A stretch of 64,000 nucleotides of DNA from an uncultured Pseudomonadota bacterium (GCA_949283075.1 CASDRH010000038.1:44483-108482), one strand, 5' to 3'. Shown: positions 1 through 17,854, numbered from the stretch's first letter. A program made the numbers and translations. Notes: generated by a model from the letters alone, not told the origin.

Positions 1-782
1 TAAATATAACTACATATAACTTGTGTCGTATAAATATGTTTCTTCATGATATTAATTATAATAAATTTGATATCGCACTTGGAGATACATTGACAAATCC
101 GAAGCATTGGGATGATGAGCCTTTTGATGCTATAGTTTCAAATCCTCCGTATTCAATAAAGTGGGACGGAGATTCGAATCCTTTGTTAATAAATGACCCG
201 CGTTTTTCGCAAGCTGGTATTTTAGCTCCACGTAGTAAGGCAGACTTAGCATTTACGATGCATATATTGTCTTGGTTATCTGAATCAGGTACAGCAGCAA
301 TAGTTGAATTTCCAGGAGTATTATATCGTGGTGGAGCAGAACAAAAGATTCGTAAATATTTGATAGAAAATAATTTTATAGATACGGTAATACAATTACC
401 ACAAAATCTTTTCTTTGGAGTTAGTATTGCGACATGTATTATTGTATTAAAGAAATCTGCAAAGAAAGATAACAACATATTGTTTATAGATGGAAGTAAA
501 GAATTTATTCATTCTGGTAATAAAAATAAGTTATCAAACGATAATATTGACAAAATATTAGAAACTTATAGGAATAGATTACCAATAGAACATTTTGCTA
601 GCTTAATTCCGAATTCAAAAGTTATTGAAAATGATTGTAATTTATCAGTATCTTCATATGTAGAATCAAAAAATACAGAAGAAGAAATAGATATAAATAA
701 ATTGAACTTAGAAATTGCAGAAATTGTAAAAAGGCAATCAAAATTACGTGAGCAAATTGATGCTATAGTTGCAGAATTATAA
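1..782 (+). CDS. hsdM: Type I restriction-modification DNA methyltransferase subunit M; only the C-terminal part is in the window and the 5' end is truncated by the window edge
   Basis: The reading frame is open to position 1. An N6-adenine methyltransferase motif, SNPPYSIKW (NPPY), is present. The gene overlaps the start of the downstream specificity-subunit gene. Confidence 0.85.
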   Translation, partial: NITTYNLCRINMFLHDINYNKFDIALGDTLTNPKHWDDEPFDAIVSNPPYSIKWDGDSNPLLINDPRFSQAGILAPRSKADLAFTMHILSWLSESGTAAIVEFPGVLYRGGAEQKIRKYLIENNFIDTVIQLPQNLFFGVSIATCIIVLKKSAKKDNNILFIDGSKEFIHSGNKNKLSNDNIDKILETYRNRLPIEHFASLIPNSKVIENDCNLSVSSYVESKNTEEEIDINKLNLEIAEIVKRQSKLREQIDAIVAEL

Positions 783-801
783 AAAAGTAAGGATTAGTTT
801 T

Positions 802-1926
802 ATGTCCAAAATTGAAGAATTGATATCAAAATATTGCCCGAATGGTGTTGAGTATAAAGAATTAGGAATGGTATTAGATTATGAACAGCCATCTAAATAT
901 CTTGTTAATTCATCATATTATTGTAATGATGAAAATTTGATACCTGTTCTTACTGCTGGTCAAACTTTTATATTGGGATATACTGATGAAAAATATGGTA
1001 TATATAATGCAAGTAAAGATAATCCTGTAATAATATTTGATGATTTTACAACAGCATCACGTTGGATTGATTTTAATTTTAAAATTAAGTCATCTGCAAT
1101 AAAGTTGCTCACTCCGAAAATAGAATGTGTTTTTAAATATGTTTATTATGCTATGATGGAAATAAAAATTAATAATTTAGAACATTCTAGACAATGGATA
1201 TCTAAATATTCTAAAATTTTAATCCCACTGCCACCAATACCGGTTCAAGAAGAGATTGTTAAAATACTGGATTCTTTTACAGAACTAGAAGCAGAACTAG
1301 AAGCAGAACTAGAAGCAAGAAAAAAACAGTATGAGTATTATAAAAAACAATTATTATCTTTTAATAATGAATATAAAAATTTAAATCATATAAAATATAT
1401 GCCTATTATAGATTTAGCTCCAGTGTATAGAGGTAAACGACTTACAAAATCAGAATTAACTGCAGAGGGAAATTATCCTGTATATCACGGTGGTATTGAA
1501 CCATTAGGATATTATTATTCTAAAAATCGTGATGCTCATACTGTTATGATTATTAATGTAGGAGCATCTGCTGGAACAGTTGGATATAGTGATACTGATT
1601 TTTGGTCATCAGATGGTTGTTTTTGTATAGGTAAATCAGATCTGTTTATACCAAAATACTTATATTATGTTTTATCTTTGAAAGAAAAAGAATTTCGTTC
1701 TAAGGTTAGAAAAGCTGGTATTCCAACATTAGATAATTCTGTTGTTGAGAAAATTGTTGTTCCAATTCCTCCACTTGCTGAACAAGAACGGATTGTTGCA
1801 ATACTTGATAAATTTGATGCTCTGGTTAATGATATTTCTGTTGGATTACCTGCTGAAATTAATGCTCGTCGTAAGCAATATGAATATTGGCGGAATAAAT
1901 TATTAGACTTCAAAAAGGCTGAATGA
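802..1926 (+). CDS. hsdS: Type I R-M specificity subunit S with two target-recognition domains
   Basis: A conserved central repeat region (ELEAELEAELEARKKQYEYYKKQLL) and a C-terminal repeat region (INARRKQYEYWRNKLL) are typical of HsdS. An AAGGA SD precedes the ATG at 802. The gene sits between hsdM and hsdR. Confidence 0.8.
   Translation: MSKIEELISKYCPNGVEYKELGMVLDYEQPSKYLVNSSYYCNDENLIPVLTAGQTFILGYTDEKYGIYNASKDNPVIIFDDFTTASRWIDFNFKIKSSAIKLLTPKIECVFKYVYYAMMEIKINNLEHSRQWISKYSKILIPLPPIPVQEEIVKILDSFTELEAELEAELEARKKQYEYYKKQLLSFNNEYKNLNHIKYMPIIDLAPVYRGKRLTKSELTAEGNYPVYHGGIEPLGYYYSKNRDAHTVMIINVGASAGTVGYSDTDFWSSDGCFCIGKSDLFIPKYLYYVLSLKEKEFRSKVRKAGIPTLDNSVVEKIVVPIPPLAEQERIVAILDKFDALVNDISVGLPAEINARRKQYEYWRNKLLDFKKAE
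1282..1317 (+). repeat. Three perfect tandem copies of a 12-bp unit (GAACTAGAAGCA) encoding (ELEA)x3, in the central conserved region of hsdS
   Basis: Read directly from the sequence. The unit is in frame and perfect in all three copies. Confidence 0.9.
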
Positions 1927-3053
1927 TGGAAAAAAATTTTGAAACAATACAAGATCTTTTCAACTATGTTAAAAAAGATTTTGATGATTCAAATAGAAAA
2001 AATAAAGTTGCTTTAAGACTTATGTTTGCATCTAACACCTCTGGAAAAACGCGTTTGTCGGAGGCTTTTAGAGAAGAAGATAAACAAAATCTTGTAGAAG
2101 ATGATTCTTTAAGTAAGGTTTTATGTTATAACTCTTTCTTTGAAGATTATTTTCACTGGGATAATGAAAAATTTGTATTGAAGCTAGATAAATATTCTTG
2201 GATATCAAAATTTATAGAAGATGAGGGATTAGATGCTCAAATTATTGATAATTTCAAAAATATTACTAATTCTAAATTTAATATAGAATTTAATCAAGAC
2301 GGTGTTTGTTTTGGATATTATCTAGATGGTTATAACGAATTATCTACGATAAAAATTTCAAGAGCAGAAGAAAGTCAATTTATTTGGTGTGTCTTCTATA
2401 CAATTTTAAAAAGGGTAATAGAGTTATTATCAGAAAATAAGGAAAGCCGTTCAACAAATCTGTTTAATGAACTTAAATATATTATTATTGATGATCCAGT
2501 ATCTTCAATGGATGATAATAGGATAATAACACTCGCATTAGATTTAATACAATTAATTAAACAAATAAATATAAATAAACTTAATATATTGATAACAACT
2601 CATCATTGCTTGTTTTACAATATTTTGCATAGTAACTCTATTAAAGAATTTAGTATTAAGAGATCTGTATTAAAGAAAAAAGAAGATAATACACTATCTC
2701 TTGATATTCAAAATAAAGATTCTCCTTTTGCATATCATCTTATCTTATTGGAGGAAATAAAAAAAGCCGTTGATAGTGATAATATAAAAAAATATCATTG
2801 TAACTTTTTAAGAAGTATTTTAGAAAAAACTGCTAATTTTTTTGGATATAATGGTTGGCAGGATTTATTGCATGATAATGCTCTTCAGCATGAGTATATT
2901 GCAAAGCTGTTAAATAGTTATAGTCATAATAGTTTGGCAGAAATAGAATATAGTTCTTTGGAGTTATCTGAAAAAGAGATTTTTAAGAGAGAATTTAATA
3001 ATTTTTTTGAAAAGTTTCACTGGAAGGTTAAGGAGTCTAATGATAAAAATTGA
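1923..3053 (+). CDS. PrrC-like anticodon-nuclease candidate: an ABC-ATPase-like N-domain plus a C-terminal R-x3-E...H nuclease-like motif
   Basis: The N-terminal region has a Walker A-like ASNTSGKT and a Walker B/D-loop IIIDDPVSSMDD. The C-terminal region has LRSILE (R-x3-E) followed about 38 residues later by SYSHNS, resembling the PrrC catalytic R/E/H arrangement. The gene is inserted between hsdS and hsdR, as in the E. coli prr locus. Confidence 0.45.
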   Translation: MMEKNFETIQDLFNYVKKDFDDSNRKNKVALRLMFASNTSGKTRLSEAFREEDKQNLVEDDSLSKVLCYNSFFEDYFHWDNEKFVLKLDKYSWISKFIEDEGLDAQIIDNFKNITNSKFNIEFNQDGVCFGYYLDGYNELSTIKISRAEESQFIWCVFYTILKRVIELLSENKESRSTNLFNELKYIIIDDPVSSMDDNRIITLALDLIQLIKQININKLNILITTHHCLFYNILHSNSIKEFSIKRSVLKKKEDNTLSLDIQNKDSPFAYHLILLEEIKKAVDSDNIKKYHCNFLRSILEKTANFFGYNGWQDLLHDNALQHEYIAKLLNSYSHNSLAEIEYSSLELSEKEIFKREFNNFFEKFHWKVKESNDKN

Positions 3054-6000
3054 TAATATTTCTCAAAATACAAATAGTACTGTTGTAGCAGAATATAAAA
3101 ATGATGGTATTCGCTCAACTAATTATCAATCTGAAGCAGAATTGGAAAAAGAATTTATAAAGTTATTGCAATCGCAATCATATGAATATGTTCATATAAA
3201 AAGTAATGATGATTTAGTTAATAATCTAAGAGCTAAATTATCAGAACTTAATAATTACGAGTTTTCTAATTCTGAATGGAACAAGTTTTTTAATGATAAA
3301 ATTGCTAATAAAAACAATGGAATAGAAGAAAAAACTTCTCTTATCCAAGAAGATTTTATTCAGAATTTGGAAAGAGATAATGGCGAGATAAAAAATATTT
3401 ATTTAATTGATAAAGGAAATATACATAATAATAAATTACAGGTTATCAACCAATATGAAACAGACAATGGACAACGAAAAAATAGGTATGATGTAACTAT
3501 TTTAGTTAATGGTATACCTTTGGTACATATAGAATTAAAACGTCGTGGTGTTGATATAAAAGAAGCTTTTAATCAGATAAATAGATATAACCGTGAAAGT
3601 TTTTGGGCTGATAGTGGTTTGTTTGAATATGTGCAATTATTTGTTATTAGTAATGGAACTTATACAAAATATTACAGCAATACAACAAGAAACCAACATA
3701 TAAAGGAAGCGAAAAATAAAGCTTCTGTAAATATTAAAAAGACAAGTAATAGTTTTGAATTTACTTCTTGGTGGTCTGATGAGAAAAATAAACCTATAAC
3801 TGATTTGATGGATTTTACTAAAACTTTCTTTTCTAAGCATACTTTATTAAGTATTTTGACAAAGTATTGTGTTTTTACTGTTGATAAATTGTTATTAGTA
3901 ATGCGTCCTTATCAAATTGTTGCTACTGAAAAAATTATAAATAAAGTCCAAATTTCACATAATTATAAAAAATATGGTTCTATTGAAGCTGGTGGATATG
4001 TATGGCATACTACTGGTTCTGGTAAGACTTTGACAAGTTTTAAAACGTCGCAATTGGTTGCAAATTTTCCATTTATAAAAAAAGTAATGTTTGTTGTGGA
4101 TCGTAAGGATTTAGATTATCAAACTATGAAAGAATATGATAAATTTGAACAGGGGGCTGCTAATAGTAATACAAATACTGCTATTTTAAAACGTCAGTTA
4201 GAAGATACAAATGTAAAGATAATAATTACTACAATTCAGAAGCTTCATAGATTTATCAATAACAATGGAGATCATAAAATATTTAATGATGAAATTGTTT
4301 TTATTTTTGATGAATGTCATAGATCTCAATTTGGAGATATGCATAAAGCGATTACAAAAAGATTTAAAAAGTATTATTTATTTGGGTTTACAGGAACTCC
4401 TATATTTGCGAAGAATGCTTCTTCAGGAGGTGATATTAAACTAAAAACTACACAGCAAGCTTTTGGAAAGCAGTTGCATACTTATACAATTATTAATGCA
4501 ATTAGAGACAAAAATGTATTACCTTTTAAAGTTGATTATATTTCTACTTTGAGAGAGGCTGAAAATATATCAGATGAAAAAATATCTGATATTAATCGAG
4601 AAAAAATATTGATGGATCCAAAAAGAATTCATAATATTACTGGATATATTTTAGAACATTTTGATCAAAAAACAAAGCGTTCAGATAAAGCATATAATTT
4701 TAGTAAAGTAGATAATATAAAAGAAGTTGTTATTTCAAAAAATAAAGTAAAAGAATCAAAAAAACATGTCTATTTACTCGGTTTTAATTCTTTGTTTTGT
4801 GTTGCTAATATAGATATGGCAAAAGCTTATTATACTGAATTTAAAAAGCAAATGGAGCAATTACCACCTATTAATAGATTAAAAGTAGCTCTTATATACA
4901 GTTTTGGAGTAAATGAAGAAAACGGAATTATAGATGAAAATTCTGAAACAACAGAGGGGTTAGATCAATCTTCACGTGATTTTTTAGAAATTGCTATAAA
5001 GGATTATAATAAAATGTTTAATACAAATTATGATACATCCGCTGATAAATTTCAGAATTATTACAAAGATGTTTCTCTTAGGATGAAGAATAGAGAGATT
5101 GATTTATTAATAGTTGTTAATATGTTTTTGACAGGATTTGATGCTACTACATTAAATACATTATGGGTTGATAAATCGTTGCGTATGCATGGACTATTGC
5201 AAGCATTTTCACGTACAAATAGAATATTAAATTCAGTTAAAACTTATGGAAATATTGTTTGCTTTAGAAATCTTGAAAATATGACAAATGAAGCTTTAGC
5301 TTTATTTGGTGATGAAAATGCTGCTGGAGTTGTTTTATTAAAAACATTTAAAGAGTATTATTCAGATGGTTATAAAGATAAAAATGGGAAATATGTTCCA
5401 AGTTATATAGAGCTTATTCAACAATTACATGAAAAATTTCCAGCAGGAATTGTTATTGAAAGTGAAGAATGTAAAAAAGAATTTATTAAACTTTATAGTG
5501 TGATATTGAAATTAAAGAATATCTTAACTTCATTTGATGAATTTCAAGGAAATGAGATATTGTCTGATAGAGATTATCAAGATTATCACAGTATGTATAT
5601 AGAGCTTTATAATGAATATCGTAATTCAGTAGATAAGGAAAAAGAGGTAGTAAATGATGATATTGTTTTTGAAATGGAACTTATAAAGCAGATAAATATA
5701 AATATTGATTATATATTATCACTTATAAAAAAATATCATAGCTCTCATATGGAAGATAAAGAAATTTTAGTAAGTATATCTAAAGCAATTGATGCAAGTA
5801 TTGAATTACGAAATAAAAAAGATTTAATAATGGCATTTGTAGAAACAATTAATGCAAAAACTGATATAGAACAAGATTGGATTAGTTTTATATCAGAAAA
5901 TCGACAGAAAGAGTTAGATGAGATAATAGAAGATGAGAATTTAAATAAAGAACAAACATATAATTTTATGAAAAATGCTTTTTATAATGGTAATTTGTCA

Positions 6001-6150
6001 ACTGATGGTACAGAGATTGCTGATTTATTACCACCAGTATCTATTTTTGCTGATTCAGATGATAATATAACTGTAAAATTAAAAACTGTTATAAATAAGT
6101 TATTAAATTTCTTTGATAGATTCTTTAATATATCAGATAAAAATTTTTAA
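3040..6150 (+). CDS. hsdR: Type I restriction enzyme R subunit, an SF2 helicase-nuclease
   Basis: A Walker A-like TGSGKT (WHTTGSGKTLTSF) and a DECH box (FIFDECHRSQFG) are present. The length is about 1040 aa. An AAGGAG SD lies 8 nt upstream of the ATG at 3040. The longer ORF from 3007 overlaps the upstream gene. Confidence 0.9.
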   Translation: MIKIDNISQNTNSTVVAEYKNDGIRSTNYQSEAELEKEFIKLLQSQSYEYVHIKSNDDLVNNLRAKLSELNNYEFSNSEWNKFFNDKIANKNNGIEEKTSLIQEDFIQNLERDNGEIKNIYLIDKGNIHNNKLQVINQYETDNGQRKNRYDVTILVNGIPLVHIELKRRGVDIKEAFNQINRYNRESFWADSGLFEYVQLFVISNGTYTKYYSNTTRNQHIKEAKNKASVNIKKTSNSFEFTSWWSDEKNKPITDLMDFTKTFFSKHTLLSILTKYCVFTVDKLLLVMRPYQIVATEKIINKVQISHNYKKYGSIEAGGYVWHTTGSGKTLTSFKTSQLVANFPFIKKVMFVVDRKDLDYQTMKEYDKFEQGAANSNTNTAILKRQLEDTNVKIIITTIQKLHRFINNNGDHKIFNDEIVFIFDECHRSQFGDMHKAITKRFKKYYLFGFTGTPIFAKNASSGGDIKLKTTQQAFGKQLHTYTIINAIRDKNVLPFKVDYISTLREAENISDEKISDINREKILMDPKRIHNITGYILEHFDQKTKRSDKAYNFSKVDNIKEVVISKNKVKESKKHVYLLGFNSLFCVANIDMAKAYYTEFKKQMEQLPPINRLKVALIYSFGVNEENGIIDENSETTEGLDQSSRDFLEIAIKDYNKMFNTNYDTSADKFQNYYKDVSLRMKNREIDLLIVVNMFLTGFDATTLNTLWVDKSLRMHGLLQAFSRTNRILNSVKTYGNIVCFRNLENMTNEALALFGDENAAGVVLLKTFKEYYSDGYKDKNGKYVPSYIELIQQLHEKFPAGIVIESEECKKEFIKLYSVILKLKNILTSFDEFQGNEILSDRDYQDYHSMYIELYNEYRNSVDKEKEVVNDDIVFEMELIKQININIDYILSLIKKYHSSHMEDKEILVSISKAIDASIELRNKKDLIMAFVETINAKTDIEQDWISFISENRQKELDEIIEDENLNKEQTYNFMKNAFYNGNLSTDGTEIADLLPPVSIFADSDDNITVKLKTVINKLLNFFDRFFNISDKNF

Positions 6151-6191
6151 AATTAAATTTCATATTTTGAATAAAAATAAGGAGTATAGAT

Positions 6192-7310
6192 ATGAATGAA
6201 ATTAAAGAACCAAATATATTTAAATATGCAACATCTGAATTATCACAAGACGCTTTTTTATGTTGGTTAATAGAAAATGCAAAAAATGAGTATAAAGAAA
6301 CAGAATTGCATAAATTTGCAAAATTGTTTGTGTCAGAATTATTAGATAATAAAATATCAGAGTTTGAAATAAAAAATATTGAAAAGCAAGATAAAAAAAT
6401 TGATGTGTTTATTGATTTAGAAGATGATAAAGGTAATAAAATAGGAGTAATTATTGAAGATAAGACATCATCATATCTTCACGATGATCAAATATTGAGG
6501 TATGTAGAAAATAAAAAAAAGGAAGATTATAATAAAATATATGTTGTATATTTCAAATCAAGATTTATGTCAAAACAAGAAGAAAAAGATTTGGATAAAT
6601 ACAATGAAGAAAGAAATAAAGATAATTCTAATTATATATTTAATATTTTTAATAATGACAAAATTAATATATTTTTTAATGAAAATGGAAAAGGAATACA
6701 TTATTTATTAGATCAATGGATTTATAATTTTGATCAAAATTATAAAGAAATACAAAATACTATTGAGTATATAAAGAATAATAAATATGACTTTCATGAT
6801 AATTCTCAAAGAAAAGTGTTTTTAGATTATAGAGAAGTTTTTTTAGACTATATAGTTTCTGAAATTCAAAATGATGAAGAATTAAAAACAAAATATAAAG
6901 ATATACGGTGGTATATAACAGATCAAGCAAGGACTCCTCATATAGAAATATATACAAAAAATAAAGATATAAGACAGTATAAGATAGGAACAACTTTATA
7001 TATTATGTTTGATAAAAATGCTTATAATTTATCTATTAAACAACATATATTTACTAAAGATTACAAACGTATTAATGTAAGAAATAATGGATATAAAAAT
7101 GTTCCTTCAAAAGTTATAGAAGAAAAAGAAAAAATTGCTTTAAAGCTATCAAATGTTTGTGAATGGGATGAGCAAAATGATACTAATAAAAGATTAGTTA
7201 TATTTAAAAAAACTTTAAATCAAGAAATAAACGCTAATAATATAATTAACAGTTTAAAAGAAAATAAAGATATTGATAATATTATTCATACACTTGAAAG
7301 TATAGAGTGA
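6192..7310 (+). CDS. Lys-rich hypothetical protein with a PD-(D/E)xK nuclease-like motif
   Basis: The motif DVFIDLEDDKGNKIGVIIEDK (D...IIEDK) matches a PD-(D/E)xK core. The gene sits immediately after hsdR, next to the KAP NTPase. Confidence 0.3.
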   Translation: MNEIKEPNIFKYATSELSQDAFLCWLIENAKNEYKETELHKFAKLFVSELLDNKISEFEIKNIEKQDKKIDVFIDLEDDKGNKIGVIIEDKTSSYLHDDQILRYVENKKKEDYNKIYVVYFKSRFMSKQEEKDLDKYNEERNKDNSNYIFNIFNNDKINIFFNENGKGIHYLLDQWIYNFDQNYKEIQNTIEYIKNNKYDFHDNSQRKVFLDYREVFLDYIVSEIQNDEELKTKYKDIRWYITDQARTPHIEIYTKNKDIRQYKIGTTLYIMFDKNAYNLSIKQHIFTKDYKRINVRNNGYKNVPSKVIEEKEKIALKLSNVCEWDEQNDTNKRLVIFKKTLNQEINANNIINSLKENKDIDNIIHTLESIE

Positions 7311-7393
7311 TATTTAAATTTATTTCAAATATCTATTGTTTTTATTATTATTTGTTAATATCATGTCTGCTATATAACTAATTAGGATATGAT

Positions 7394-9724
7394 ATGAATT
7401 TTATTAAAAAATATTTAAACAAACCATTGTTATGTATAATTAGATTTATTAATCATATTGATAGTATTTATTTTAAAAATTACTATGTAAATCCTGATGA
7501 TATTTACCATATTATTAACAATAATTTAAATAATGAAGATATTTCATATAATGAACAATTAAAAGAATATATTTTAGTTAAATTAATTATCTTATTTAAA
7601 AGTACAATTAAAGTTTCATGTATAGTTGGACTTACTATTTTGATTTTGGGATTATTTAATCTTGTAAATTCTTATTCTTTTATATTTTTATTTGCTATAC
7701 TAATTATAGCCTTATACTGTTTTATTAAATATTTAAAATCTAAGTTAGATATATCTTTTAATAAATCAAAATGTTTTATGATAGAAGGACCATGGGGTAT
7801 AGGTAAAACATATACATTTAATACTAGAATAAAACCGGAATTAGCAAAACTTTTTAAAAATATATATTATGTATCTTTGTCTGGTTTGAAAACTCAAGAT
7901 GAAATCAGAGCTAAAATAATAAGTAAATATAAGATATTCAAAAACTATCACTTCATATTTTTCATATTAGGAGTGTCTTTTTTTATACTTTGGCTTTTTG
8001 CTTTTGTTAATACTAAAGATAGTTTAGCTTTATATAATCAATGTGATAATTGTTTAATTATATCTTTTAATTATTTTCCTAATTTTATATCTAATAAGAT
8101 AATAGAGTTATGGCCGTATATTGGAACTCTTATAAAAACACAATATTTAGAAAATATTATTCAAATAGTTCTATGGATAACAATTGGATATTGGGTATTA
8201 TGTTTACTTGGTTATAAATTTCTTATAAGTTTTATATCAAGCCTATCTAAAAAACACTTCGGTTTTGATATAGCTGATGAAAAATTAGATTTAACATTTA
8301 TAAATAATAAAGATACATTACTTGTATTTGATGATTTAGAAAGAGTTGCCGAAGATACAGATATAAAAAGCATACTAGGCTTTATTGGTAATTTAAAAGA
8401 GGTATATGGATTTAATATTATTTTAATCTGCAATGAAGAAGAGCTTAAAAAAGTATACGAAAGAGATAACTATCAAGTTGAGTTTATAAGTAAAAAAATA
8501 GATGGGCAAGAGGTGCAAATTCCTAAATATGATAAAAATAAGGATGTTAATAATAATTATAAAAGATATAAAGAAAAATTTGTTGATAAGACTTTATATA
8601 AAACTTTGGAATTTAGATTAAAAGTAAAAATATTTAAAGATAAATTTGATGAATATGGTGGGATTTTAATTCTAAAATTTGTAAAAAATATAGAGAATAC
8701 TATAATTTATTCATATGATAAATATGGTGAGAAAGAATATAAAGATGCATTTATAGATAAAATTAAAACAGATATTAGACTTTGGCAAAGAATTGTTGAT
8801 AATATTGATTATTTAATTCAGGAAACAAAGTTTTTTGAAAATATTATAGATGATTTAAAGTATGATAAAAATTGCAAATATTTTTATAATGAAAAAAATA
8901 ATACATATATTTTAGAAGAAGATTTAAAAGATATTGTAATATATATATTATTCTTTTCTGTTGAATATTCTTATGGATCACTTTTAGATTTTAAAGAATA
9001 TGTGATGTGTAGTTATGAATATGCTAAGTATAAAGATAATAAGAATTTAAATACCTTATATAAAGATCATAAGTACTATTTTTTATACAAAAAATTGTCT
9101 TTTATTGCTATAAATACTTCAAATATCTATATAGCAAATATGGCTTATAATTTAGTAATTGGCAAATTTGAAGATGTTAATGCAGATAAATTACTTCAAA
9201 ATAAGTCTGAAGTTTTATTAAGGTATATATTTAAACACTTAGTGTTGTCAAATATATTAGATGATAATAATAAAAAATATTTTATTAATAATTTTTCTGA
9301 AATATCAGAGTTTAGCGTGGATAATTGGGAAATAATCAAGGGATTTATACGTAATCATACATTTGATCAAAATGAAGAAGATAAATTTATAGATGAGTTT
9401 AAAAAATTAATAAAAAAATCTGATATATTTATGTTTTATAGATATTCTCCAAATTATTCTATAAATACAGATAATGAGTTTTTAAATAGAGTTTATAATA
9501 TTTGTTTAGAATATCTAAATAAAAATAGATTAATTAAAACAAAGGAATATTTTGATTCTTTATCTGAGACAAAAACAATAATTAAAAATGATATTATAGA
9601 TTTATTATTTTCTGAAGAATTTAAAACAGATGCTGAAGATTATGTAAAAAAATATCCTATAACTAATAAACAAATAATAGATTATTTAAAAAGTAATGAT
9701 GTTTTTAGGCATTTAAAGTCATAG
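7394..9724 (+). CDS. KAP-family P-loop NTPase with transmembrane segments inserted in the NTPase domain
   Basis: Walker A is EGPWGIGKTYTF. Walker B is LLVFDDLERV (the KAP hhhhDDLDR type). Hydrophobic helices lie before the Walker A motif and again between Walker A and Walker B. Confidence 0.65.
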   Translation: MNFIKKYLNKPLLCIIRFINHIDSIYFKNYYVNPDDIYHIINNNLNNEDISYNEQLKEYILVKLIILFKSTIKVSCIVGLTILILGLFNLVNSYSFIFLFAILIIALYCFIKYLKSKLDISFNKSKCFMIEGPWGIGKTYTFNTRIKPELAKLFKNIYYVSLSGLKTQDEIRAKIISKYKIFKNYHFIFFILGVSFFILWLFAFVNTKDSLALYNQCDNCLIISFNYFPNFISNKIIELWPYIGTLIKTQYLENIIQIVLWITIGYWVLCLLGYKFLISFISSLSKKHFGFDIADEKLDLTFINNKDTLLVFDDLERVAEDTDIKSILGFIGNLKEVYGFNIILICNEEELKKVYERDNYQVEFISKKIDGQEVQIPKYDKNKDVNNNYKRYKEKFVDKTLYKTLEFRLKVKIFKDKFDEYGGILILKFVKNIENTIIYSYDKYGEKEYKDAFIDKIKTDIRLWQRIVDNIDYLIQETKFFENIIDDLKYDKNCKYFYNEKNNTYILEEDLKDIVIYILFFSVEYSYGSLLDFKEYVMCSYEYAKYKDNKNLNTLYKDHKYYFLYKKLSFIAINTSNIYIANMAYNLVIGKFEDVNADKLLQNKSEVLLRYIFKHLVLSNILDDNNKKYFINNFSEISEFSVDNWEIIKGFIRNHTFDQNEEDKFIDEFKKLIKKSDIFMFYRYSPNYSINTDNEFLNRVYNICLEYLNKNRLIKTKEYFDSLSETKTIIKNDIIDLLFSEEFKTDAEDYVKKYPITNKQIIDYLKSNDVFRHLKS

Positions 9725-9868
9725 TTTTATGTTTGAATATAATTGTAAAGGGAATTACAGATTTAGATATAAAATAAGATTTAAAAAATTTTTTGAGAAA
9801 GAATAAAGATAAAATTTAATAAAGTTGTTATAAAAATATATTTTTTTATACTTTTGTAAAATTTATGA

Positions 9869-10105
9869 TTGTCTTTTACTCTTATAAGTTTTGTAGCTTA
9901 TAATTCATTTGCTTTTGATGAATTAGGAAATGAAGTTATAGATAAAAGAGTTGTAAAAGAATTAGATGGTATTGGAGAAAAATCTGATATCAATAAACAA
10001 GATAATGTAAAGGCTGAAAATTCTGTTAAAATATCTTCTTCTGAAAATAGAGATGATAAATTACAGCAGACTAAATATGATGAACAATTAAAAGAATATA
10101 AATAA
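9869..10105 (+). CDS. Small hypothetical protein, acidic and lysine-rich
   Basis: ORF only; no recognisable motif. Confidence 0.2.
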   Translation: MSFTLISFVAYNSFAFDELGNEVIDKRVVKELDGIGEKSDINKQDNVKAENSVKISSSENRDDKLQQTKYDEQLKEYK

Positions 10106-10139
10106 AGAAGAAAAAGATGAAATATAATATTTATCTTAA

Positions 10140-10775
10140 TTAAATATAATTTAGTTTTTTATATCTTTTTCTTATACATTGAATTGATGTTTCATGGACG
10201 CCTTTTGTTATTTCATAATATACAAAGCGTCCTATTTTTTTATATGAAACAAACTCATCTTCTTTTAATTTTTTTAAAAATTGAGACGCTTTTAATGCTT
10301 CCATATTTAAGCCTTTTGATATTTCTGATACGTTACTTTTCCCTTTTACAAGTAGAAATTCTAAAATTCTCATCTTATCTATATGTGAAAATAGTTTTAT
10401 TCTATTAGCTACCATTGTAGTATAATCTTTTGGTAGTATCTTTTTATAATCTTCTTTTAAAAAATAAAAATCGTTTGTCATATATCCAAATAATTTTCTT
10501 ATACACACAAAAATTGATGCAGGGTATTCTTCGAATATTTCATAGTATATGAATATTCCTTTTCTTGTTGTTTTTACTAAATTTGCATCTCTTAACTTCT
10601 TAAGGTTTTGTGATATTATTATTTGTTCTTCGTTTAATCCTTTTGTGATATCTGATACTGATGATTTACCGTTTACATCTAAAAATTCAAGAATTCTTAA
10701 ACGTAAAGGATGTGATATATAACTGATCCCTTTTTCTGCTTTTTGCATTATTTCTTTTGGTAATAAATCTTCCAT
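10140..10775 (-). CDS. Transcriptional regulator with two tandem winged-helix (ArsR/MarR-like) domains
   Basis: Two internal repeats, ILEFLDVNGKSSVSDITKGLN...LKKLRDANLV and ILEFLLVKGKSNVSEISKGLN...LKKLKEDEFV, each resemble an ArsR-type wHTH. Confidence 0.5.
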   Translation of the reverse strand: MEDLLPKEIMQKAEKGISYISHPLRLRILEFLDVNGKSSVSDITKGLNEEQIIISQNLKKLRDANLVKTTRKGIFIYYEIFEEYPASIFVCIRKLFGYMTNDFYFLKEDYKKILPKDYTTMVANRIKLFSHIDKMRILEFLLVKGKSNVSEISKGLNMEALKASQFLKKLKEDEFVSYKKIGRFVYYEITKGVHETSIQCIRKRYKKLNYI

Positions 10776-10875
10776 ATATTTATCCTTATTTTATATAGGG
10801 ATACATTTATTTTTATAATTTTTCAATAAAAAAATCCGTTGTTAAAAACGGACTTATTTTATTTGTTTTTTTTAT

Positions 10876-11244
10876 TTAATATTTGAATTGAATTGCTAAT
10901 TTATCAAATTTGTTTTGACTTTCTTCATTCCAGCCCAATATATAATGTTGCCCCATACATATTAATGGTGTGCCGACGCTTCTTTTATCTATTTCAAATT
11001 TATCTGCACATTCTATCATTAAATTTATGTTTTCTTGATTTGATATGTTTTTAAATTCAATTTTTAAATTTTTATGGTTTTTTGTTATATATTCTTCTGC
11101 TTCTTTACAATATGGACAACTATCTTTTGTGAAAAAGTATATTGTTTTATCGTCTATTTTGTCTGATTTGTATATTTTGCTCATTTGAGCGTTTGCATTA
11201 CTTATCATTATACCTGATAATATTATGTATATTATTTTTTTCAT
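10876..11244 (-). CDS. Secreted glutaredoxin/thioredoxin-fold protein with a CPYC active site
   Basis: An N-terminal signal peptide is followed by DSCPYCKEAEEY, the classic glutaredoxin CPYC motif. Confidence 0.45.
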   Translation of the reverse strand: MKKIIYIILSGIMISNANAQMSKIYKSDKIDDKTIYFFTKDSCPYCKEAEEYITKNHKNLKIEFKNISNQENINLMIECADKFEIDKRSVGTPLICMGQHYILGWNEESQNKFDKLAIQFKY

Positions 11245-11256
11245 TTTTCTTATCCT

Positions 11257-11838
11257 TTATTCAATACAACAATTTACTGCTTTTTTTACAAAGTTTTTCA
11301 TTCTTGTAAATTTGCTTTCATCTGATTTTTTTGTATTATTTGTTTCGGGTTTTATGTTTTCTATTTGTTTTGATATTTTATTTATGTTTTCATTGCCTGT
11401 TTGAATCCACTTAACATCATCAGTATTAATCATACCCATATTTAAACCCCAGAATATGCAATATAATTCATAAGCTTGATTGAATAATTTATATGCTTCT
11501 TCTTTGTTGTTTAAGCTTTGTTGTTTTGTTCCTACTTCCATTAAACGCATTGATGTTGCTAGTAAGTGTTTTGATATACACCAAACTTCTCCTTCATATG
11601 CTGGTATTACTTTTTGCATTAAGTTTTTTCGCATTTCTCTTATATCTTGTATCATATCATAAAATGATGTTTTTTCTGTCTTTGCACCTGAAAAAACTAA
11701 ATGTTCTTCTATTGATATTAAGTTCATTATAGCTATTGTCAAATCTTGATCTGATGATAAGTCTTTTGGATTTACTTTTTTTGCAGCATCATATTTTTCA
11801 ACAAATTCTTTTACGTTTTTTATTTTCTTTATATTCAT
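11257..11838 (-). CDS. Hypothetical protein
   Basis: ORF with coding-like composition; no motif recognised. Confidence 0.3.
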   Translation of the reverse strand: MNIKKIKNVKEFVEKYDAAKKVNPKDLSSDQDLTIAIMNLISIEEHLVFSGAKTEKTSFYDMIQDIREMRKNLMQKVIPAYEGEVWCISKHLLATSMRLMEVGTKQQSLNNKEEAYKLFNQAYELYCIFWGLNMGMINTDDVKWIQTGNENINKISKQIENIKPETNNTKKSDESKFTRMKNFVKKAVNCCIE

Positions 11839-11864
11839 TGTTTACTCCTTTCTTTTTGGTTTTA

Positions 11865-12377
11865 TTAGAATTTCAAATATGTAAAATATATGCTTGTTAT
11901 AATTAGCATTAATACTGGAATTACTACTTTTTCAAATGGGAAGTGTGCGTGTCCTCCATTTTTTACTTTCATATATTGGTATAGCTTTTGTGATATAACG
12001 TATATTATCCATCCTATTATTGCTGAAAATAAAAATTTATCTATGTATAGGATTTTGAGTATTACTTCTGGAGTGTATTTTAAGTCTTTTATATAAATTG
12101 CTCCTATCATTGAAAATGATAATAGTAATAAAATGTAATCTCTTGCTATGAAATTCCATTTCTTCTTTTCAAATAGCAGTATTGTCCAGTAGCCTAGTAA
12201 TGCTAATATTGCTCCTAGCCATATTGCGATTATATTATCATTTACTCCTAGTTTTCTTGCTATTGATAAGCTTGTTCCTATTGCTACTGTGCATACTATA
12301 CATGCTGGATTTGCTAATGCTGTTTTAGATATACTGCTTAATATTCCAATTGTTATTAATGTTTTTTTCATTTTCAA
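11865..12377 (-). CDS. Hypothetical membrane protein with a signal peptide and 3-4 transmembrane helices
   Basis: Hydrophobic segments throughout; no motif recognised. Confidence 0.35.
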   Translation of the reverse strand: MKMKKTLITIGILSSISKTALANPACIVCTVAIGTSLSIARKLGVNDNIIAIWLGAILALLGYWTILLFEKKKWNFIARDYILLLLSFSMIGAIYIKDLKYTPEVILKILYIDKFLFSAIIGWIIYVISQKLYQYMKVKNGGHAHFPFEKVVIPVLMLIITSIYFTYLKF

Positions 12378-12525
12378 CTCCTTTATATACTAAATATAAT
12401 ATATAGTATATTTAATAGATATTAAAAATGCAATATATTTATTTTGATATTATTTGATTATTCTTATAAATCATATGTTTATAATATTATTTTGCTTATT
12501 GATAAATTTATAAGTGATATTTAAT

Positions 12526-12556
12526 TATAAAAAGACGGGGCTTTACAAGCCCCGCT
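12526..12556 (-). terminator. Rho-independent terminator for the gtrA-like gene
   Basis: A GC-rich perfect 8-bp stem (CGGGGCTT/AAGCCCCG) is followed by a T-run on the minus strand, inside an otherwise AT-rich intergenic region. Confidence 0.6.
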
Positions 12557-12644
12557 AAAATGACACTCAAAAATAAAAACACTGCTTTTATTATGTAACA
12601 TATTTGAATGAATGTCAAGTTTTTTAATAATAAATATCTCTTAT

Positions 12645-13061
12645 TTATTTGAATGATATAGATTTATGTATGAAATAACCTAGAATAGCAACTATTATTG
12701 TTGCAATTGGTTGGGCATACATTGGATTTATTCTTAATATTTCTACTAATAAAGCCATTAATCCAGAAGTTATAATCATTAAAATAATCTGCATCGAAAA
12801 AGTTTTAATGAATTGTTTTTTGAAATCTCCTTCTTTTAAAAAGACATAATATTTTAAAGTGAAAATACTTACTGTTATTGATATGAAACTTGAAAAGTAA
12901 TAAATTACTAGGTAATTGAAAATATTTCCAAAAAGATAAAATAATGTTTGATATAAAAATATTCCAAAAACTGTATTAAATCCTCCAACCAAAAAGTATC
13001 TTACTGGTTCTGGTATCTTTATAAAGTTTTTGTATAAAAACATATATATTTTTTTTATCAT
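12645..13061 (-). CDS. gtrA: GtrA-family small membrane protein (polyprenol-sugar flippase-like)
   Basis: The protein is 138 aa with four transmembrane helices and the motif FLVGGFNTVFGIFLYQ. It is directly downstream of the GT2 gene. Confidence 0.55.
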   Translation of the reverse strand: MIKKIYMFLYKNFIKIPEPVRYFLVGGFNTVFGIFLYQTLFYLFGNIFNYLVIYYFSSFISITVSIFTLKYYVFLKEGDFKKQFIKTFSMQIILMIITSGLMALLVEILRINPMYAQPIATIIVAILGYFIHKSISFK

Positions 13062-13063
13062 AT

Positions 13064-14137
13064 TTATCTTTTCTTTTTATTTTCTTTTGTATTGAAATTA
13101 TCTTCACATTCAACAATGAATAAAGGTCTATCTTTTGTTTCTGTATAAATACGACCTATGTATTCTCCTAAAACTCCGATTGAAATAAGTTGTACTCCTC
13201 CGAAGAATAGTATTGTTACCATTAAAGATGGATATCCACGAACTGATGAGCCATATATTAATGTATTAATTATAATCCATAATCCAAAAATGAAAGCTAT
13301 AAATGAAATTAGTGAACCTATAACAAACCAAAAACGTAATGGCATATTTGTGAATGAAAATATTGCATTACTTGCCAATTCAAATAGTTTACGCCAGCTT
13401 TGTGATGGGTTTCCTGCAATTCTGTCTGGCCTGTCAAAGTAAACTAGCTGATATTCAAATCCAATCCAAGCCCAAAGTCCACGAATGTATCTTTGCTTTT
13501 CACATAATTTATTGAATTCATCAATTAGTTGTCTGTCTACTAATCTGAAATCTCCTGTGTTAGATGGTATATCAATGTTTGAAAAAATACGTATACATTT
13601 ATAAAATAAATTACAACCGATACGCTTTAATAATCCTTCACTTCTTGAGAATCTTTTTGCTAAAACTGCTTTATGACCATATTGCCATTCTTTAATCATA
13701 ACAGGTAATAATTCAATAGGATCTTGTAAATCTGCGTCCATAGGAATAGCACATTTTTTTGAAGCGTATTTGAATCCTGCTGCTAATGCAATTTCTTTAC
13801 CAAAGTTTCTTGAAAATTTAACTATTTTTATACGATTATCTTTTTTTGCATATTCTAATAATCTTAAATAAGTATTATCTTTACTTCCATCGTCTACACA
13901 TATGATTTCAAAATCTTTTGTTATTTTTTCCATTGCTGGTATTAGGTTATAAAAGAATATATCTATAACATTGCTTTTTGCTTCGTTGTAAAAAGGAGCA
14001 ATGATAGAAACAGAAATATCTTTATCTGCGATAATTTTTTTATTAAATCCAATGCTTCGTTTTTTGTCAACTTGGATGCGACCATTGTATTTTACAACCA
14101 ATGAATCTTCTTTAATTTTATTTTTATTTTTTACCAT
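13064..14137 (-). CDS. Family-2 glycosyltransferase, polyprenol-phosphate sugar transferase (GtrB/ArnC-like)
   Basis: GT2 motifs are present: VSIIAPFYNE, ICVDDGSKDNT and DADLQDP. There are C-terminal transmembrane helices. Confidence 0.75.
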   Translation of the reverse strand: MVKNKNKIKEDSLVVKYNGRIQVDKKRSIGFNKKIIADKDISVSIIAPFYNEAKSNVIDIFFYNLIPAMEKITKDFEIICVDDGSKDNTYLRLLEYAKKDNRIKIVKFSRNFGKEIALAAGFKYASKKCAIPMDADLQDPIELLPVMIKEWQYGHKAVLAKRFSRSEGLLKRIGCNLFYKCIRIFSNIDIPSNTGDFRLVDRQLIDEFNKLCEKQRYIRGLWAWIGFEYQLVYFDRPDRIAGNPSQSWRKLFELASNAIFSFTNMPLRFWFVIGSLISFIAFIFGLWIIINTLIYGSSVRGYPSLMVTILFFGGVQLISIGVLGEYIGRIYTETKDRPLFIVECEDNFNTKENKKKR

Positions 14138-15642
14138 TTTTCTCCTCTTAATATACCTATAAATAATTTTGTTGATTTTGATTTGTTGAATATATTATCT
14201 GATTTTATTTCAATAATATCAATTAGTTTTAAATTCGGAAAGTTGTTAGTATAACTATCAAATTCATCTTTTGTGTTTGCAAATACTATTATACCTTTGT
14301 TTTTGATGTCAGATAAGACTTCATCATTAACCCAAGAATTTTTATCTAAATTCATTTCAATGAATGTTTTTATTTTTTGATTTGTTTTTCTTTCTAAATT
14401 AACGGCGACTATTGATGCAATCCACATATCTCCGCCTGTGTATAGAAGTTGTTTGTTTCCTGTATGAGTTTCCCATATATCTATTGATTTATTTATTAGT
14501 AAATCTTGATTTATATTAAATTTTAAAGATGGAGTAGTTATTACTATTAAAACGAATATAACCGCATATATGATAGATATTATATAAGTATATTGGATAA
14601 ATTTTTTGAAAATTATTTCTGTATCATTATTAGTTTTAATTTTAAAGTTATAGAATAACCATATCCCAGTCATAAACAACATAGGAGTTCCCCACATTGA
14701 TTTTAAAGAAACTGCTCCTATAAATGAGCCTAGCATAGTTATTATTAAAGGTAAAAAAGTGATACAATTTATAAAAAATGTTTTATCGTTAGATGGTGAA
14801 AAAAATTTATTAAGTGTGATTTTGTTAAATTTGTTTTTATGAATTATGAATATTATTAAAAGTGGAATAATTAAAATAAATTGAGCAAAGAAAAATTTTA
14901 AAGGATAAATTAAATGATTTAATATAAAGTATTCTTGAGGTGAACCTCTTTTTAACATATATGTTAATGTGATAAAGTCATTATTAATTAGCCATTTTAT
15001 ATGTGGTATTAATGTTATTATAAATATTGTTAAAGCTATATACGGGCCTTTGTATTTTAAAGTTTTTCTTGCTTCTTTTGAAAAACAAAAATAAATGAAC
15101 ATAGCAGTAAATAATACGAAAACAAAGTATTTATCTAGAACTGATAAGGCTGCAAATAATCCTGTAAGTATCCAATCTGATGTTTTGTTTTTATGAATAG
15201 CTTGATAAAAATGATATACTAATGCTGGCCATAATAGTAAGAAAACTATGTTAACATTATATTCAACTGATGTTATGTTGTAATATATAATAGTGTCTAA
15301 AATTATTACTGATAGTATTGATAATTTATCTGATAAAAATAATTTACCAATTTTATATATATAAATAAATCCGGATATGATAAAGATTTGGCTTAATATA
15401 TAAACAGATTCTGGCAATCTGCAAAGTAATAAATAAAAGTAATATGCAAACCAACCTGATAGTGGAGGGTGTTTGTCTGTTCCAAATACTATGTTTTTAC
15501 CCCAAGTTATAGCTTCTATGCTATCCATAGGAATGACTCCTCTTAAAAAAGGTAGTAATGACCATACTATAAAGTGAAATAATAAAAATGTAATAAATAG
15601 TTTTAAATCGTTATTCTTTTTTAAAGATTTTAAAAAAATCAT
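14131..15642 (-). CDS. GT-C fold membrane glycosyltransferase (ArnT/PMT/GtrC-like)
   Basis: The protein is 503 aa and polytopic. It has the N-terminal loop motif DSIEAITWGKNIVFGTDKHPPLSGW, typical of GT83/GT39 members. It forms an operon with the GtrB-like and GtrA-like genes. Confidence 0.55.
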   Translation of the reverse strand: MIFLKSLKKNNDLKLFITFLLFHFIVWSLLPFLRGVIPMDSIEAITWGKNIVFGTDKHPPLSGWFAYYFYLLLCRLPESVYILSQIFIISGFIYIYKIGKLFLSDKLSILSVIILDTIIYYNITSVEYNVNIVFLLLWPALVYHFYQAIHKNKTSDWILTGLFAALSVLDKYFVFVLFTAMFIYFCFSKEARKTLKYKGPYIALTIFIITLIPHIKWLINNDFITLTYMLKRGSPQEYFILNHLIYPLKFFFAQFILIIPLLIIFIIHKNKFNKITLNKFFSPSNDKTFFINCITFLPLIITMLGSFIGAVSLKSMWGTPMLFMTGIWLFYNFKIKTNNDTEIIFKKFIQYTYIISIIYAVIFVLIVITTPSLKFNINQDLLINKSIDIWETHTGNKQLLYTGGDMWIASIVAVNLERKTNQKIKTFIEMNLDKNSWVNDEVLSDIKNKGIIVFANTKDEFDSYTNNFPNLKLIDIIEIKSDNIFNKSKSTKLFIGILRGEKW

Positions 15643-15761
15643 AATAAACCTCTGTTTAAATTTAAGTAAATTATATATTTAGATAAAAAATAATCAAATT
15701 AAAATTATTTATTTGATTTATATAGTTTGCAATAAATATTTATTTATTATAAAATTTTTTT

Positions 15762-16310
15762 ATGTGTCTTAATAAATCTTGTCTTAAATGTGGATTATAT
15801 AATTATCAAAAACCTATATATGATGATGAAAAGTTGTCTGATATTATGTGGGTTGGATTGTCTGCTAAATTAATTAATAATGATTTTAAAGCTCCTTTGG
15901 ATTTGAATACTGCTTCTGGAAAAATTATTTCTGATATTGAAATGATGACTTCTGATTTTGTTCATTGTAAAACTAATTTAGTTAAATGTGCTCCTTTAAA
16001 TGATGCTGGTAAATTAAGATATCCTTTTAAATCAGAAATGGATTTTTGCTTTGATAACTTGATTTTAGAAGTTAATAATATAAAGCCTAAAATTATATTT
16101 TTGTTAGGTAAAATTGTATCTGATTTTATTTTATCGAAAAATGGATTTGATAAAATTGCTTTATCTGATAATTTTAAATATAAATCTGTGCAGATAAGTG
16201 ATATTTTATATTATCCTGTTCATCATCCTTCTTATATTTCTGTTTATAAAAAGAAATTTTGTAAGCAATATATTGATAGTATTGTTGATATTATTAAGTC
16301 TAATATTTAA
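15762..16310 (+). CDS. UDG-superfamily protein, family 4/5-like uracil-DNA glycosylase with a 4Fe-4S-type Cys pattern
   Basis: An N-terminal CLKCGL (CxxCxL) plus later Cys residues, IIFLLGK, and a C-terminal VHHPSY (the HPS motif) are present. The motif A position is degenerate (VGLSAK), which is family-5-like. Confidence 0.45.
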   Translation: MCLNKSCLKCGLYNYQKPIYDDEKLSDIMWVGLSAKLINNDFKAPLDLNTASGKIISDIEMMTSDFVHCKTNLVKCAPLNDAGKLRYPFKSEMDFCFDNLILEVNNIKPKIIFLLGKIVSDFILSKNGFDKIALSDNFKYKSVQISDILYYPVHHPSYISVYKKKFCKQYIDSIVDIIKSNI

Positions 16311-16348
16311 TCCTTTATAAATTTTGTTTAATATGTTTATAATTGCTT

Positions 16349-17854
16349 ATGATTATTGATTATAAAGTTTTTACAGATAGAAAAGCTAAATCAAGAGTAT
16401 TGTCTTATATTGCTTTATTGGACAGGGTTTTGTTATGGGAATTTTTTGAATCTGTAAAAAAATATAATGTTAAAGATTTTAAGTTGTCTAGTTTATGTAA
16501 TAAAGAGCAACAATTTAATAAGCTATTAAATGATTTTAATAAAAATCAGAATGTTAGAGATTTTAATTCATATCCTTTTGATTTATTTGGGACTGAGGCT
16601 TTTTTGCATTTCTTATCGAAGCAGATTCAAAATATAAAAAATGATTTTGTTCATTCTTTAAGGTGTAGGCTTTTTATAGATATTCCAGAAAAAGGCTTTC
16701 CAGATTTAAGGAATAAAATTGCTAATATTATGTTGTTAAGACATTATTTTATTCATAACGGCAATCCTCAAAATGGTAATATCGTTATTGATGATAAAGT
16801 TGTTTTAGAAAAGCTTGATATTGTAAAAGCGTTTATTATTTTGTTTGTATTTCTTCCTTATGATTATGCAAATGATATTTTTAATTGTATTAAAGCTTAT
16901 TGTGATAATCCTGATGAATTAAAAACAATATTAGATAAAATTGATAAAAATAAGAAATATGTTAAGGACGATGTTTTAAAAAGTAATCCTGATAATAATT
17001 TTCCAACTTATAAGGATTTATTGGAATCTGATGCTTCGTTAAATAAATTTTTTGAAAGCTATCCTTATATTAGCAGTAAGCGTTTATCTGTTAAGATTAT
17101 GGATAAAAATTTTATCGGAGATTATAATATTGGGCGTATTGAAGCTGTTTTTATGGATTTATATAAATGTAAAGCAGCGGAATTTGTTAAAAAGAAACGT
17201 AAAGATAAATTTTATATGGAACAAATAAAATCTGTTTTTTTCTTGTTCATTAAGATTATTGAAGTTATCCAAAGATATTTTATATTTGAATTTGAAAATG
17301 ATAAAGATAATACAAATAAAAATTATATCAATATAAGGAATGCTGTTTCTCATTCAGATATATTTTTTTATGGAGAAAATAAACAAAAATATCTTGATGA
17401 ATTTGATAAAAATATTAGGGATATTTTATCTTTTTTTGATGAAAAGAAGGATAGAAAATCTTTGAAAATAGAATTTTTAAAAAGTATGGATTCTTTGTTT
17501 GCAAAACGTAATAATTTTAAATTGAAAGTTGTATATGATAAAACGAAGGATAATCATAAAAATCAAATTGAATTATATGATGTTGATGTCAATTTTAATG
17601 AGTTTTTAAAACAAAATGATTTTTCTGATTTTAATAAGTATTCAAGAAAAAGTGTTAATAATAAAATAAAAGAAATTATAAATTCTATATTATCAAATGA
17701 TAATAAAAATAATAGGGTTCAAAGGAAAAATATAAGCTTGGTTAAGTATTCATATTTGTTGGATTTGAAAAAGGAATTGAGAAGAATTTTGAAAAAAGCA
17801 AAAGAGGATAATTATCAGCAATATAATTCTTGTTTTCAGAAAAAAATTGGATAA
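16349..17854 (+). CDS. Compact double-HEPN protein (two R-x4-H motifs) adjacent to a CRISPR-like array; candidate miniature Cas13-like (type VI-like) effector
   Basis: The first HEPN motif is LLRHYFIHNG (R133-x4-H138 in ORF numbering). The second is NIRNAVSHSD (R332-N-x3-H337, the RNxxxH form typical of Cas13 HEPN motifs). The C-terminal tail is Lys-rich. The array starts 88 bp downstream on the same strand. The ORF track start at 16343 is TTG; the first ATG is at 16349. Confidence 0.5.
   Translation: MIIDYKVFTDRKAKSRVLSYIALLDRVLLWEFFESVKKYNVKDFKLSSLCNKEQQFNKLLNDFNKNQNVRDFNSYPFDLFGTEAFLHFLSKQIQNIKNDFVHSLRCRLFIDIPEKGFPDLRNKIANIMLLRHYFIHNGNPQNGNIVIDDKVVLEKLDIVKAFIILFVFLPYDYANDIFNCIKAYCDNPDELKTILDKIDKNKKYVKDDVLKSNPDNNFPTYKDLLESDASLNKFFESYPYISSKRLSVKIMDKNFIGDYNIGRIEAVFMDLYKCKAAEFVKKKRKDKFYMEQIKSVFFLFIKIIEVIQRYFIFEFENDKDNTNKNYINIRNAVSHSDIFFYGENKQKYLDEFDKNIRDILSFFDEKKDRKSLKIEFLKSMDSLFAKRNNFKLKVVYDKTKDNHKNQIELYDVDVNFNEFLKQNDFSDFNKYSRKSVNNKIKEIINSILSNDNKNNRVQRKNISLVKYSYLLDLKKELRRILKKAKEDNYQQYNSCFQKKIG

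Follow-up and report, generated by a model that had tools for sequence, protein, structure and literature searches.

The closest described system is the prr locus of Escherichia coli, in which a latent anticodon nuclease, PrrC, is released upon phage interference (PMC1484252, PMC3710099, PMC12707154); the account of this mechanism in an earlier, sequence-only reading of the DNA described here agrees with these three sources. The E. coli protein (EcoPrrC) cleaves within the anticodon loop to leave 2',3'-cyclic phosphate and 5'-OH ends, its latency is imposed by the restriction-modification (R-M) enzyme, and an anti-restriction factor activates it together with GTP and dTTP, properties established for EcoPrrC alone (PMC1484252). 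Asp287, Phe292 and Tyr294 of EcoPrrC take part in tRNA(Lys) recognition (PMC1950546), 33 residues are essential for its toxicity (Meineke et al., Table 1; PMC3025547) and the PrrC box, a motif unique to PrrC proteins, has been defined (PMC3025547). Passages of PMC3025547 and PMC2610378 describe RloC as combining a homologous ABC NTPase with a HEPN-type nuclease that carries the same Arg-Glu-His residues; it differs, according to a passage of PMC3458546, in being about twice as long as PrrC, in its Rad50-like coiled coil with a zinc hook and in being rarely linked to R-M genes. PARIS (the ABC ATPase AriA with the Toprim tRNase AriB) is likewise an ABC-ATPase-controlled tRNA nuclease freed by a phage anti-restriction protein, and has been grouped with PrrC as an 'RM guardian' in a review (PMC12707154); however, its nuclease has an unrelated fold (Toprim) and it is a two-protein system found outside hsd operons, and the protein described below is not a member.

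The window, that is, the whole stretch of 64,000 nucleotides from an uncultured Pseudomonadota bacterium (GCA_949283075.1 CASDRH010000038.1:44483-108482) that was analysed, contains an ATG-initiated open reading frame (ORF) of 376 amino acids at positions 1923..3053 (+ strand), which was present in the ORF list where the sequence-only reading had placed it. This gene was annotated as prrC, encoding a PrrC-family anticodon nuclease, on the basis of the PADLOC PrrC profile, a BLASTP comparison with the E. coli protein and the essential residues. Translation may start at ATG 1923 or at the alternative ATG 1926 (an identical database protein, P0001, has 375 amino acids). The reading frame is intact and the length is typical of the family (376 amino acids vs a median of 364).

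The gene lies between hsd genes on the same strand. Upstream is the 3' part of hsdM (1..782, + strand), encoding the Type I methyltransferase subunit (Pfam N6_Mtase, E=3.3e-76, profile positions 92-310/311); its 5' end is outside the window, and the ORF is listed from position 21 only because its frame extends past the window edge. It is followed by hsdS (769..1926, + strand; start at TTG 769 or ATG 802), which encodes a specificity subunit with two target-recognition domains and matches Pfam Methylase_S in two stretches (E=6e-34). Downstream is hsdR (3040..6150, + strand), encoding a restriction subunit of 1036 amino acids with HSDR_N, SWI2_SNF2, ResIII, T1R_D3-like and EcoR124_C domains (Pfam) and a PADLOC REase_I score of 1129 bits. 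The Type IC hsd domains were matched by Pfam with E-values from 2e-46 to 4e-62 and full profile coverage, and the domain architecture of HsdR (HSDR_N, SF2 motor, T1R_D3, EcoR124_C) is that of a Type IC enzyme. Compared with its counterpart in the E. coli prr locus, the window HsdR shows 42% identity over the entire protein. Apart from hsdM crossing the window edge, the flanking hsd genes are intact.

Successive reading frames in this operon overlap. In the DNA, the TGA stop of hsdS (1924-1926) overlaps the ATG of prrC (1923-1925), and the last 14 nt of prrC are overlapped by hsdR when the latter is read from ATG 3040. This is most likely the hsdR start, rather than TTG 3007, with AAGGAG (3030-3035) lying four bases upstream, and the resulting length of 1036 amino acids is the same as that of the HsdR beside the closest prrC homologue. 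No terminator-like sites were found on the + strand inside the four-gene operon; the number of promoter-like sites (87) showed no excess over the shuffled expectation (95±10) and is uninformative on regulation. The best explanation of the arrangement is that prrC is co-transcribed and translationally coupled with the hsdM-hsdS-prrC-hsdR Type IC operon.

When the protein was searched against PADLOC profiles, the PrrC model matched with 313 bits (E=7.4e-94) over protein residues 15-374 and profile positions 23-353/372. It was the best PADLOC profile, with a margin of over 80 orders of magnitude; matches to the long PDC-S06 models were weak. The profile check proposed in the sequence-only reading thus assigned the whole protein, C-terminal domain included, to PrrC, and assignment to an unrelated ATPase family was not seen. 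Relatives in a large protein database numbered over 3,300 at E<=0.001, and most of these carry a precomputed match to PF13166 (AAA_13); few have a name, which is then 'anticodon nuclease', 'AAA family ATPase' or 'wobble nucleotide-excising tRNase'. The PHROGs family 23661 ('unknown function') also matched the window protein, at 1e-73. Membership of the PrrC family far beyond chance is supported by these results.

Pfam and NCBIfam assigned no family to the window PrrC, with AAA_13 absent even at E<=10, so that a standard pipeline would label the protein hypothetical. As its nearest non-identical relative (P0002; 67% identity) matches Pfam AAA_13, the PrrC/RloC family, from the Walker B motif to the C-terminal nuclease region, the Pfam miss was taken as one of sensitivity and not as counter-evidence. 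Searches of the PDB with the single sequence and with a 26-sequence profile returned nothing useful (FtsE, E=0.86; Parp14, E=0.18), and no PrrC structure was found there by sequence. A 41-amino-acid composite of EcoPrrC motif strings (PMC3025547) yielded no candidates when searched against the large protein database.

The order hsdM-hsdS-X-hsdR had been likened to that of the E. coli prr locus, and the likeness was borne out both in E. coli and among relatives. An E. coli reference locus (L085; NZ_CP157955.1), recovered by a distant DNA search with a Pseudomonadales prrC-hsdR locus, has the order subunit M, subunit S, a 396-amino-acid 'anticodon nuclease' and HsdR. GTDB genomes, one for each species, were scanned and gave 80 loci, which are spread over many phyla of bacteria and also occur in several archaea. 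The prrC homologue is adjoined by one or more hsd genes in 80/80 loci, reproducing the 'invariable linkage' of prrC to hsd reported in the literature (PMC1484252, PMC1950546). Where 1.5 kb or more was available on either side of the gene (65 loci), the order was M-S-C-R in 60, M-C-S-R in two, C-M-S in two and S-C-R in one. The closest homologue, found at four metagenomic loci, is preceded by hsdM, a 203-amino-acid ORF and hsdS and followed by hsdR, with prrC and hsdR overlapping. One chromosomal island of E. coli is found both in a version that contains prrC (L085) and in one that lacks it (L086), and the gene is therefore optional.

The 396-amino-acid E. coli protein carries the EcoPrrC motifs at their published positions (YYNAF 82, LSKGE 169, SSLD 219, KFIITTH 245 and KYGDSNKSFSY 284; PMC3025547) and was used for comparison. 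By BLASTP the window PrrC is 35% identical to it over 378 residues, across the full length (E=1e-66). Both are two-domain proteins, with an ABC-type NTPase bearing a PrrC box and a C-terminal R-E-H nuclease, and both are encoded in M-S-C-R loci with overlapping or abutting reading frames and a Type IC HsdR. The window protein differs in being 20 residues shorter, in a 2-residue insertion between the positions of E324 and R349, and in a loop 2 residues shorter at the anticodon-recognition stretch.

The complete set of ABC-type NTPase motifs (Walker A, signature, Walker B, D-loop and H-loop) is present in the window PrrC. The Walker A motif or P-loop, ASNTSGKT (residues 36-43; 2028..2051, + strand), supplies K42 and T43 (Eco K46 and T47), with R44 (Eco R48) just beyond it; these three are identical to EcoPrrC, and G41, K42 and T43 do not vary among 121 sequences. 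In the PrrC box, CYNSFFEDYFHWDNE (residues 68-82; 2124..2168, + strand), all four essential residues are identical to EcoPrrC (E74, W79, D80 and N81, corresponding to Eco E88, W93, D94 and N95). The ABC signature region, KISRAE (residues 144-149; 2352..2369, + strand), has K144 for Eco K168 and R147 for Eco K171. The Walker B motif and D-loop, IIIDDPVSSMDDNR (residues 187-200; 2481..2522, + strand), contain D190, D191, S194, S195, D197, D198 and N199, equivalent to Eco D215, D216, S219, S220, D222, D223 and N224. The H-loop, NILITTH (residues 221-227; 2583..2603, + strand), provides T226 and H227 (Eco T250 and H251), with Asn in place of Eco K245, and N233, downstream of it, is identical to Eco N257. 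The two ABC-ATPase-like motifs quoted in the sequence-only reading, ASNTSGKT and IIIDDPVSSMDD (residues 187-198), were both located.

In the C-terminal region, the nuclease active-site helix, HCNFLRSILEK (residues 292-302; 2796..2828, + strand), carries H292, R297, E301 and K302 (Eco H315, R320, E324 and K325) and has S298 for Eco N321. The HEPN-type motif, KLLNSYSH (residues 328-335; 2904..2927, + strand), carries K328, N331 and H335 (Eco R349, N352 and H356), so that the HEPN R-x4-6-H position reads K328-x6-H335, in which the His is invariant. The R-x3-E reported earlier corresponds to R297-x3-E301 within LRSILE (residues 296-301), and the His said to lie about 38 residues downstream is H335 in SYSHNS (residues 332-337), exactly 38 after R297; the spacing in EcoPrrC is 36, with a 2-residue insertion in the loop between. 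R297, E301 and H335 align with Eco Arg320, Glu324 and His356 and are invariant in 121/121 sequences, and a lack of conservation of these positions among homologues was not seen. The observation as first made (the ORF, the quoted motifs and the flanking genes) was confirmed.

The 33 residues essential for EcoPrrC toxicity were examined in a 122-sequence alignment, of which 121 are non-E. coli sequences. The window PrrC is identical to EcoPrrC at 25/33 positions, including D255 (Eco D276), H272, H292, R297, E301, N331 and H335 in the nuclease domain, and differs at eight: K171→R, H225→R, K245→N, E262→N, H297→I, K299→L, N321→S and R349→K. In EcoPrrC, K171R is active, and R349K and every tested change of N321 are inactivating; H297 and K299 are variable among the homologues that were tested (PMC3025547). 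Position 349 is Lys in 85/121 sequences and Arg in 29/121, position 321 is Ala or Ser in 89/121 and position 225 is Arg in 91/121; as these are the majority states of the clade, the residues at all three positions were read as lineage-specific. The only minority state is K245→N (Asn in 9/121, Lys in 97/121). Most of the differing residues, judged by their distribution in the alignment, look like clade-specific states rather than decay.

The part of the window protein that aligns with the anticodon-recognition region (LARP) of EcoPrrC is QNKDS--PFAYH (residues 263-272; 2709..2738, + strand), in which D266, S267, F269, Y271 and H272 correspond to Eco D287, S288, F292, Y294 and H295. It contains a 2-residue deletion and keeps 4/11 LARP positions (D, S, F and Y); the equivalents of Asp287, Ser288, Phe292, Tyr294 and His295 are conserved in most of the clade too. 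A loss of Asp287, suggested by an ungapped reading of the LARP, was ruled out by the gapped family alignment and by BLASTP. Since the equivalents of Asp287, Phe292 and Tyr294 are kept, the target of the window PrrC, by analogy with EcoPrrC, is probably tRNA(Lys), which is the least certain step of the proposal. Scanning the window for Rfam families and tRNA genes gave no matches, and hence no host tRNA(Lys) to examine.

These same residues bear on the alternative that survives best, namely that the protein belongs to the PrrC family and acts on another tRNA or RNA, or has an altered catalytic arrangement, and is not a tRNA(Lys) nuclease. The Lys at the HEPN Arg (Eco R349), the Ser at Eco N321, the recognition loop shortened by 2 residues with only 4/11 LARP positions kept, and the presence of tRNA(Lys) recognition residues in some homologues only, together with the diverse specificities that have been proposed (PMC1484252), all favour it. 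Against it, the window protein and the majority of its clade keep the equivalents of Asp287, Ser288, Phe292, Tyr294 and His295, and the catalytic triad is intact; this alternative was regarded as possible yet rather unlikely. It was considered a little more doubtful still that the clade with Lys at 349, Ala or Ser at 321 and a short recognition loop, as defined by these sequence features, might constitute a functionally distinct PrrC subtype with a modified catalytic arrangement or a target other than tRNA(Lys); the suggestion starts from the inactivation of EcoPrrC by such changes. The PrrC clade to which the window protein belongs is widespread, in bacteria and archaea.

A PrrC relic, decayed or permanently silent and with no RNA-cutting activity left, is an improbable reading of the gene. 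The eight differences at essential residues, among them R349K, which is inactive in EcoPrrC, the Asn at position 245 even though 97/121 relatives have Lys, and the finding that NmePrrC is non-toxic in yeast (PMC3025547) could be read in this way; on the other side stand the intact frame and family-typical length, the 58 invariant columns of a 26-sequence family alignment (by definition kept in the window PrrC), the intact hsd neighbours, and the fact that the substitutions recur in the majority of a widespread clade, a distribution that speaks for function.

In the structural model, the N-terminus is predicted to form a Rad50/SMC-type ABC head and the C-terminus a HEPN-like helical bundle, the latter comprising the C-terminal 120 residues as a separate bundle with the invariant R/E/H. 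It is very improbable that the protein is an RloC-type nuclease, sensing DNA damage by itself and adjoining R-M genes by accident. It would share the ABC-plus-HEPN domain family (AAA_13 in homologues), and weak PADLOC PDC-S06 matches point the same way; however, the window PrrC is without the extra length (376 amino acids, with about 100 residues from Walker A to the signature motif), its best profile is PrrC by the margin given above and the hsd linkage extends to all 80 loci. No long coiled coil was present in the model and no CxxC of a zinc hook in the sequence, and the RloC architecture is therefore excluded. Scarcely credible, too, is the reading of the protein as a generic ATPase of the ABC/SMC type that assists the restriction enzyme and has no nuclease function. 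The Rad50/SMC/ABC heads dominating the whole-protein fold search and the weak FtsE match in the PDB sequence search favour it; the separate C-terminal HEPN-like bundle with its invariant R/E/H and the full-length match to PrrC speak against it. HEPN toxins (HEPN-MNT, the HEPN domains of Csm6/Csx1 and other R-M-linked HEPN proteins) were also compared: the Arg of their motif is Lys in the window PrrC, and the window protein differs from them in its extra R-x3-E helix, which is specific to PrrC and RloC, and in that its domain shares a polypeptide with an ABC NTPase and is not paired with an MNT antitoxin.

The window protein is thus very likely a PrrC-family anticodon nuclease coupled to the Type IC R-M enzyme and acting as a guard in the manner of EcoPrrC; family membership, folds, residues and operon position were observed, and the action is proposed by analogy. 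The interpretation offered in the sequence-only reading is thereby supported. Following the E. coli model, the window PrrC would oligomerise via its Rad50/ABC-type NTPase head, and the oligomers would be bound to the HsdMSR complex with the C-terminal HEPN-type RNase kept silent. Should a phage anti-restriction factor disable the Type I enzyme, the NTPase domain would read nucleotide signals and the RNase would be released. The freed RNase would then cut a tRNA anticodon loop by metal-independent transesterification, with R297, E301 and H335 as the putative catalytic set, whereupon translation would stop and infection abort. By homology, the locus may constitute a two-layer defence that combines DNA restriction with abortive tRNA cleavage. 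Unlike the E. coli prr locus (EcoprrI), it belongs to an uncultured bacterium of about 26% GC, and an equivalent of T4 Stp is not expected as the trigger.

The window protein is an ordinary, previously unnamed member of the well-described PrrC family, with no new biology. Its recognition fills an annotation gap, a clear PrrC guard nuclease being present where Pfam and NCBIfam are silent, and adds a low-GC example from an uncultured lineage to a family already known as widespread. The clade-wide Lys-for-Arg variant of the HEPN motif is mildly unusual and testable and opens no new question; the only other mildly unusual point is that neither Pfam nor NCBIfam recognises the window PrrC. GC content is 22-31% throughout the window; the prrC locus does not stand out from its surroundings in composition, which therefore offers no evidence for recent transfer. 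Outside the locus the window has the content of an ordinary chromosome, with ArgRS, a class I Val/Ile-type tRNA synthetase, SerRS, RpoD with the non-essential region, a GatA-like amidase and Lnt.

The PrrC protein of the window (376 amino acids; positions 1923-3053) was screened against the PHROGs collection of viral protein families, where it was matched over its full length by phrog_23661, a family annotated as 'unknown function', with an E-value of 1e-73. Because of this match, phrog_23661 is a PrrC-like viral family, and copies of PrrC exist in phage or prophage. The protein was recognised neither by the Pfam family AAA_13 nor by NCBIfam.

The closest homologue of the window protein (67% identity) is carried by four metagenomic loci (L001-L004, positions 1-17152), in which an additional ORF of 203 amino acids separates hsdM from hsdS. 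This locus looks like a mobile defence island, and is flanked by genes for a UvrD-type helicase, a serine recombinase and GmrSD (Type IV restriction), as well as by a terminase fragment. Variant gene orders were observed among related loci, with hsdM-prrC-hsdS-hsdR found in two (L021 and L027) and a prrC homologue located 5' of hsdM-hsdS in another two (L062 and L073).

Two E. coli chromosomes (loci L085 and L086) were found to have an island in common, comprising McrB, DUF4942, a Type IC hsd system and CbtA/YeeU; a 396-amino-acid anticodon nuclease is present in the island of L085 (5423-6613) and absent from that of L086. The motif of EcoPrrC is printed as YYNAFYEDLF in PMC3025547, while the RefSeq E. 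coli anticodon nuclease reads YYNAFTEDLF, a discrepancy at position 87.

Immediately 3' of hsdR in the window lies an ORF of 372 amino acids (6192-7310, + strand; GC content approximately 20%), which may be a component of a defence island. There was no match for this ORF in Pfam, NCBIfam, PADLOC, PHROGs or the PDB sequences searched. Visual inspection of its sequence shows a D...E-D-K pattern (DVFIDL...VIIEDKT) that recalls PD-(D/E)xK nucleases. The 776-amino-acid ORF at 7394-9724 (+ strand), in which a Walker A motif (GPWGIGKT) is followed by hydrophobic segments, looks on inspection like a KAP-type P-loop NTPase; its matches are to PDC-S49, a defence candidate in PADLOC (9e-18), and to phrog_4740 in PHROGs (3e-17), with no Pfam family among them.

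Across the whole 64 kb window (1-64000) no tRNA genes and no Rfam families at the gathering threshold were found, in contrast to the presence of three aminoacyl-tRNA synthetase genes in this chromosomal window. An ORF of 1177 amino acids (48346-51879, + strand), with two LNT_N and two CN_hydrolase stretches, apparently encodes a tandem or duplicated apolipoprotein N-acyltransferase.
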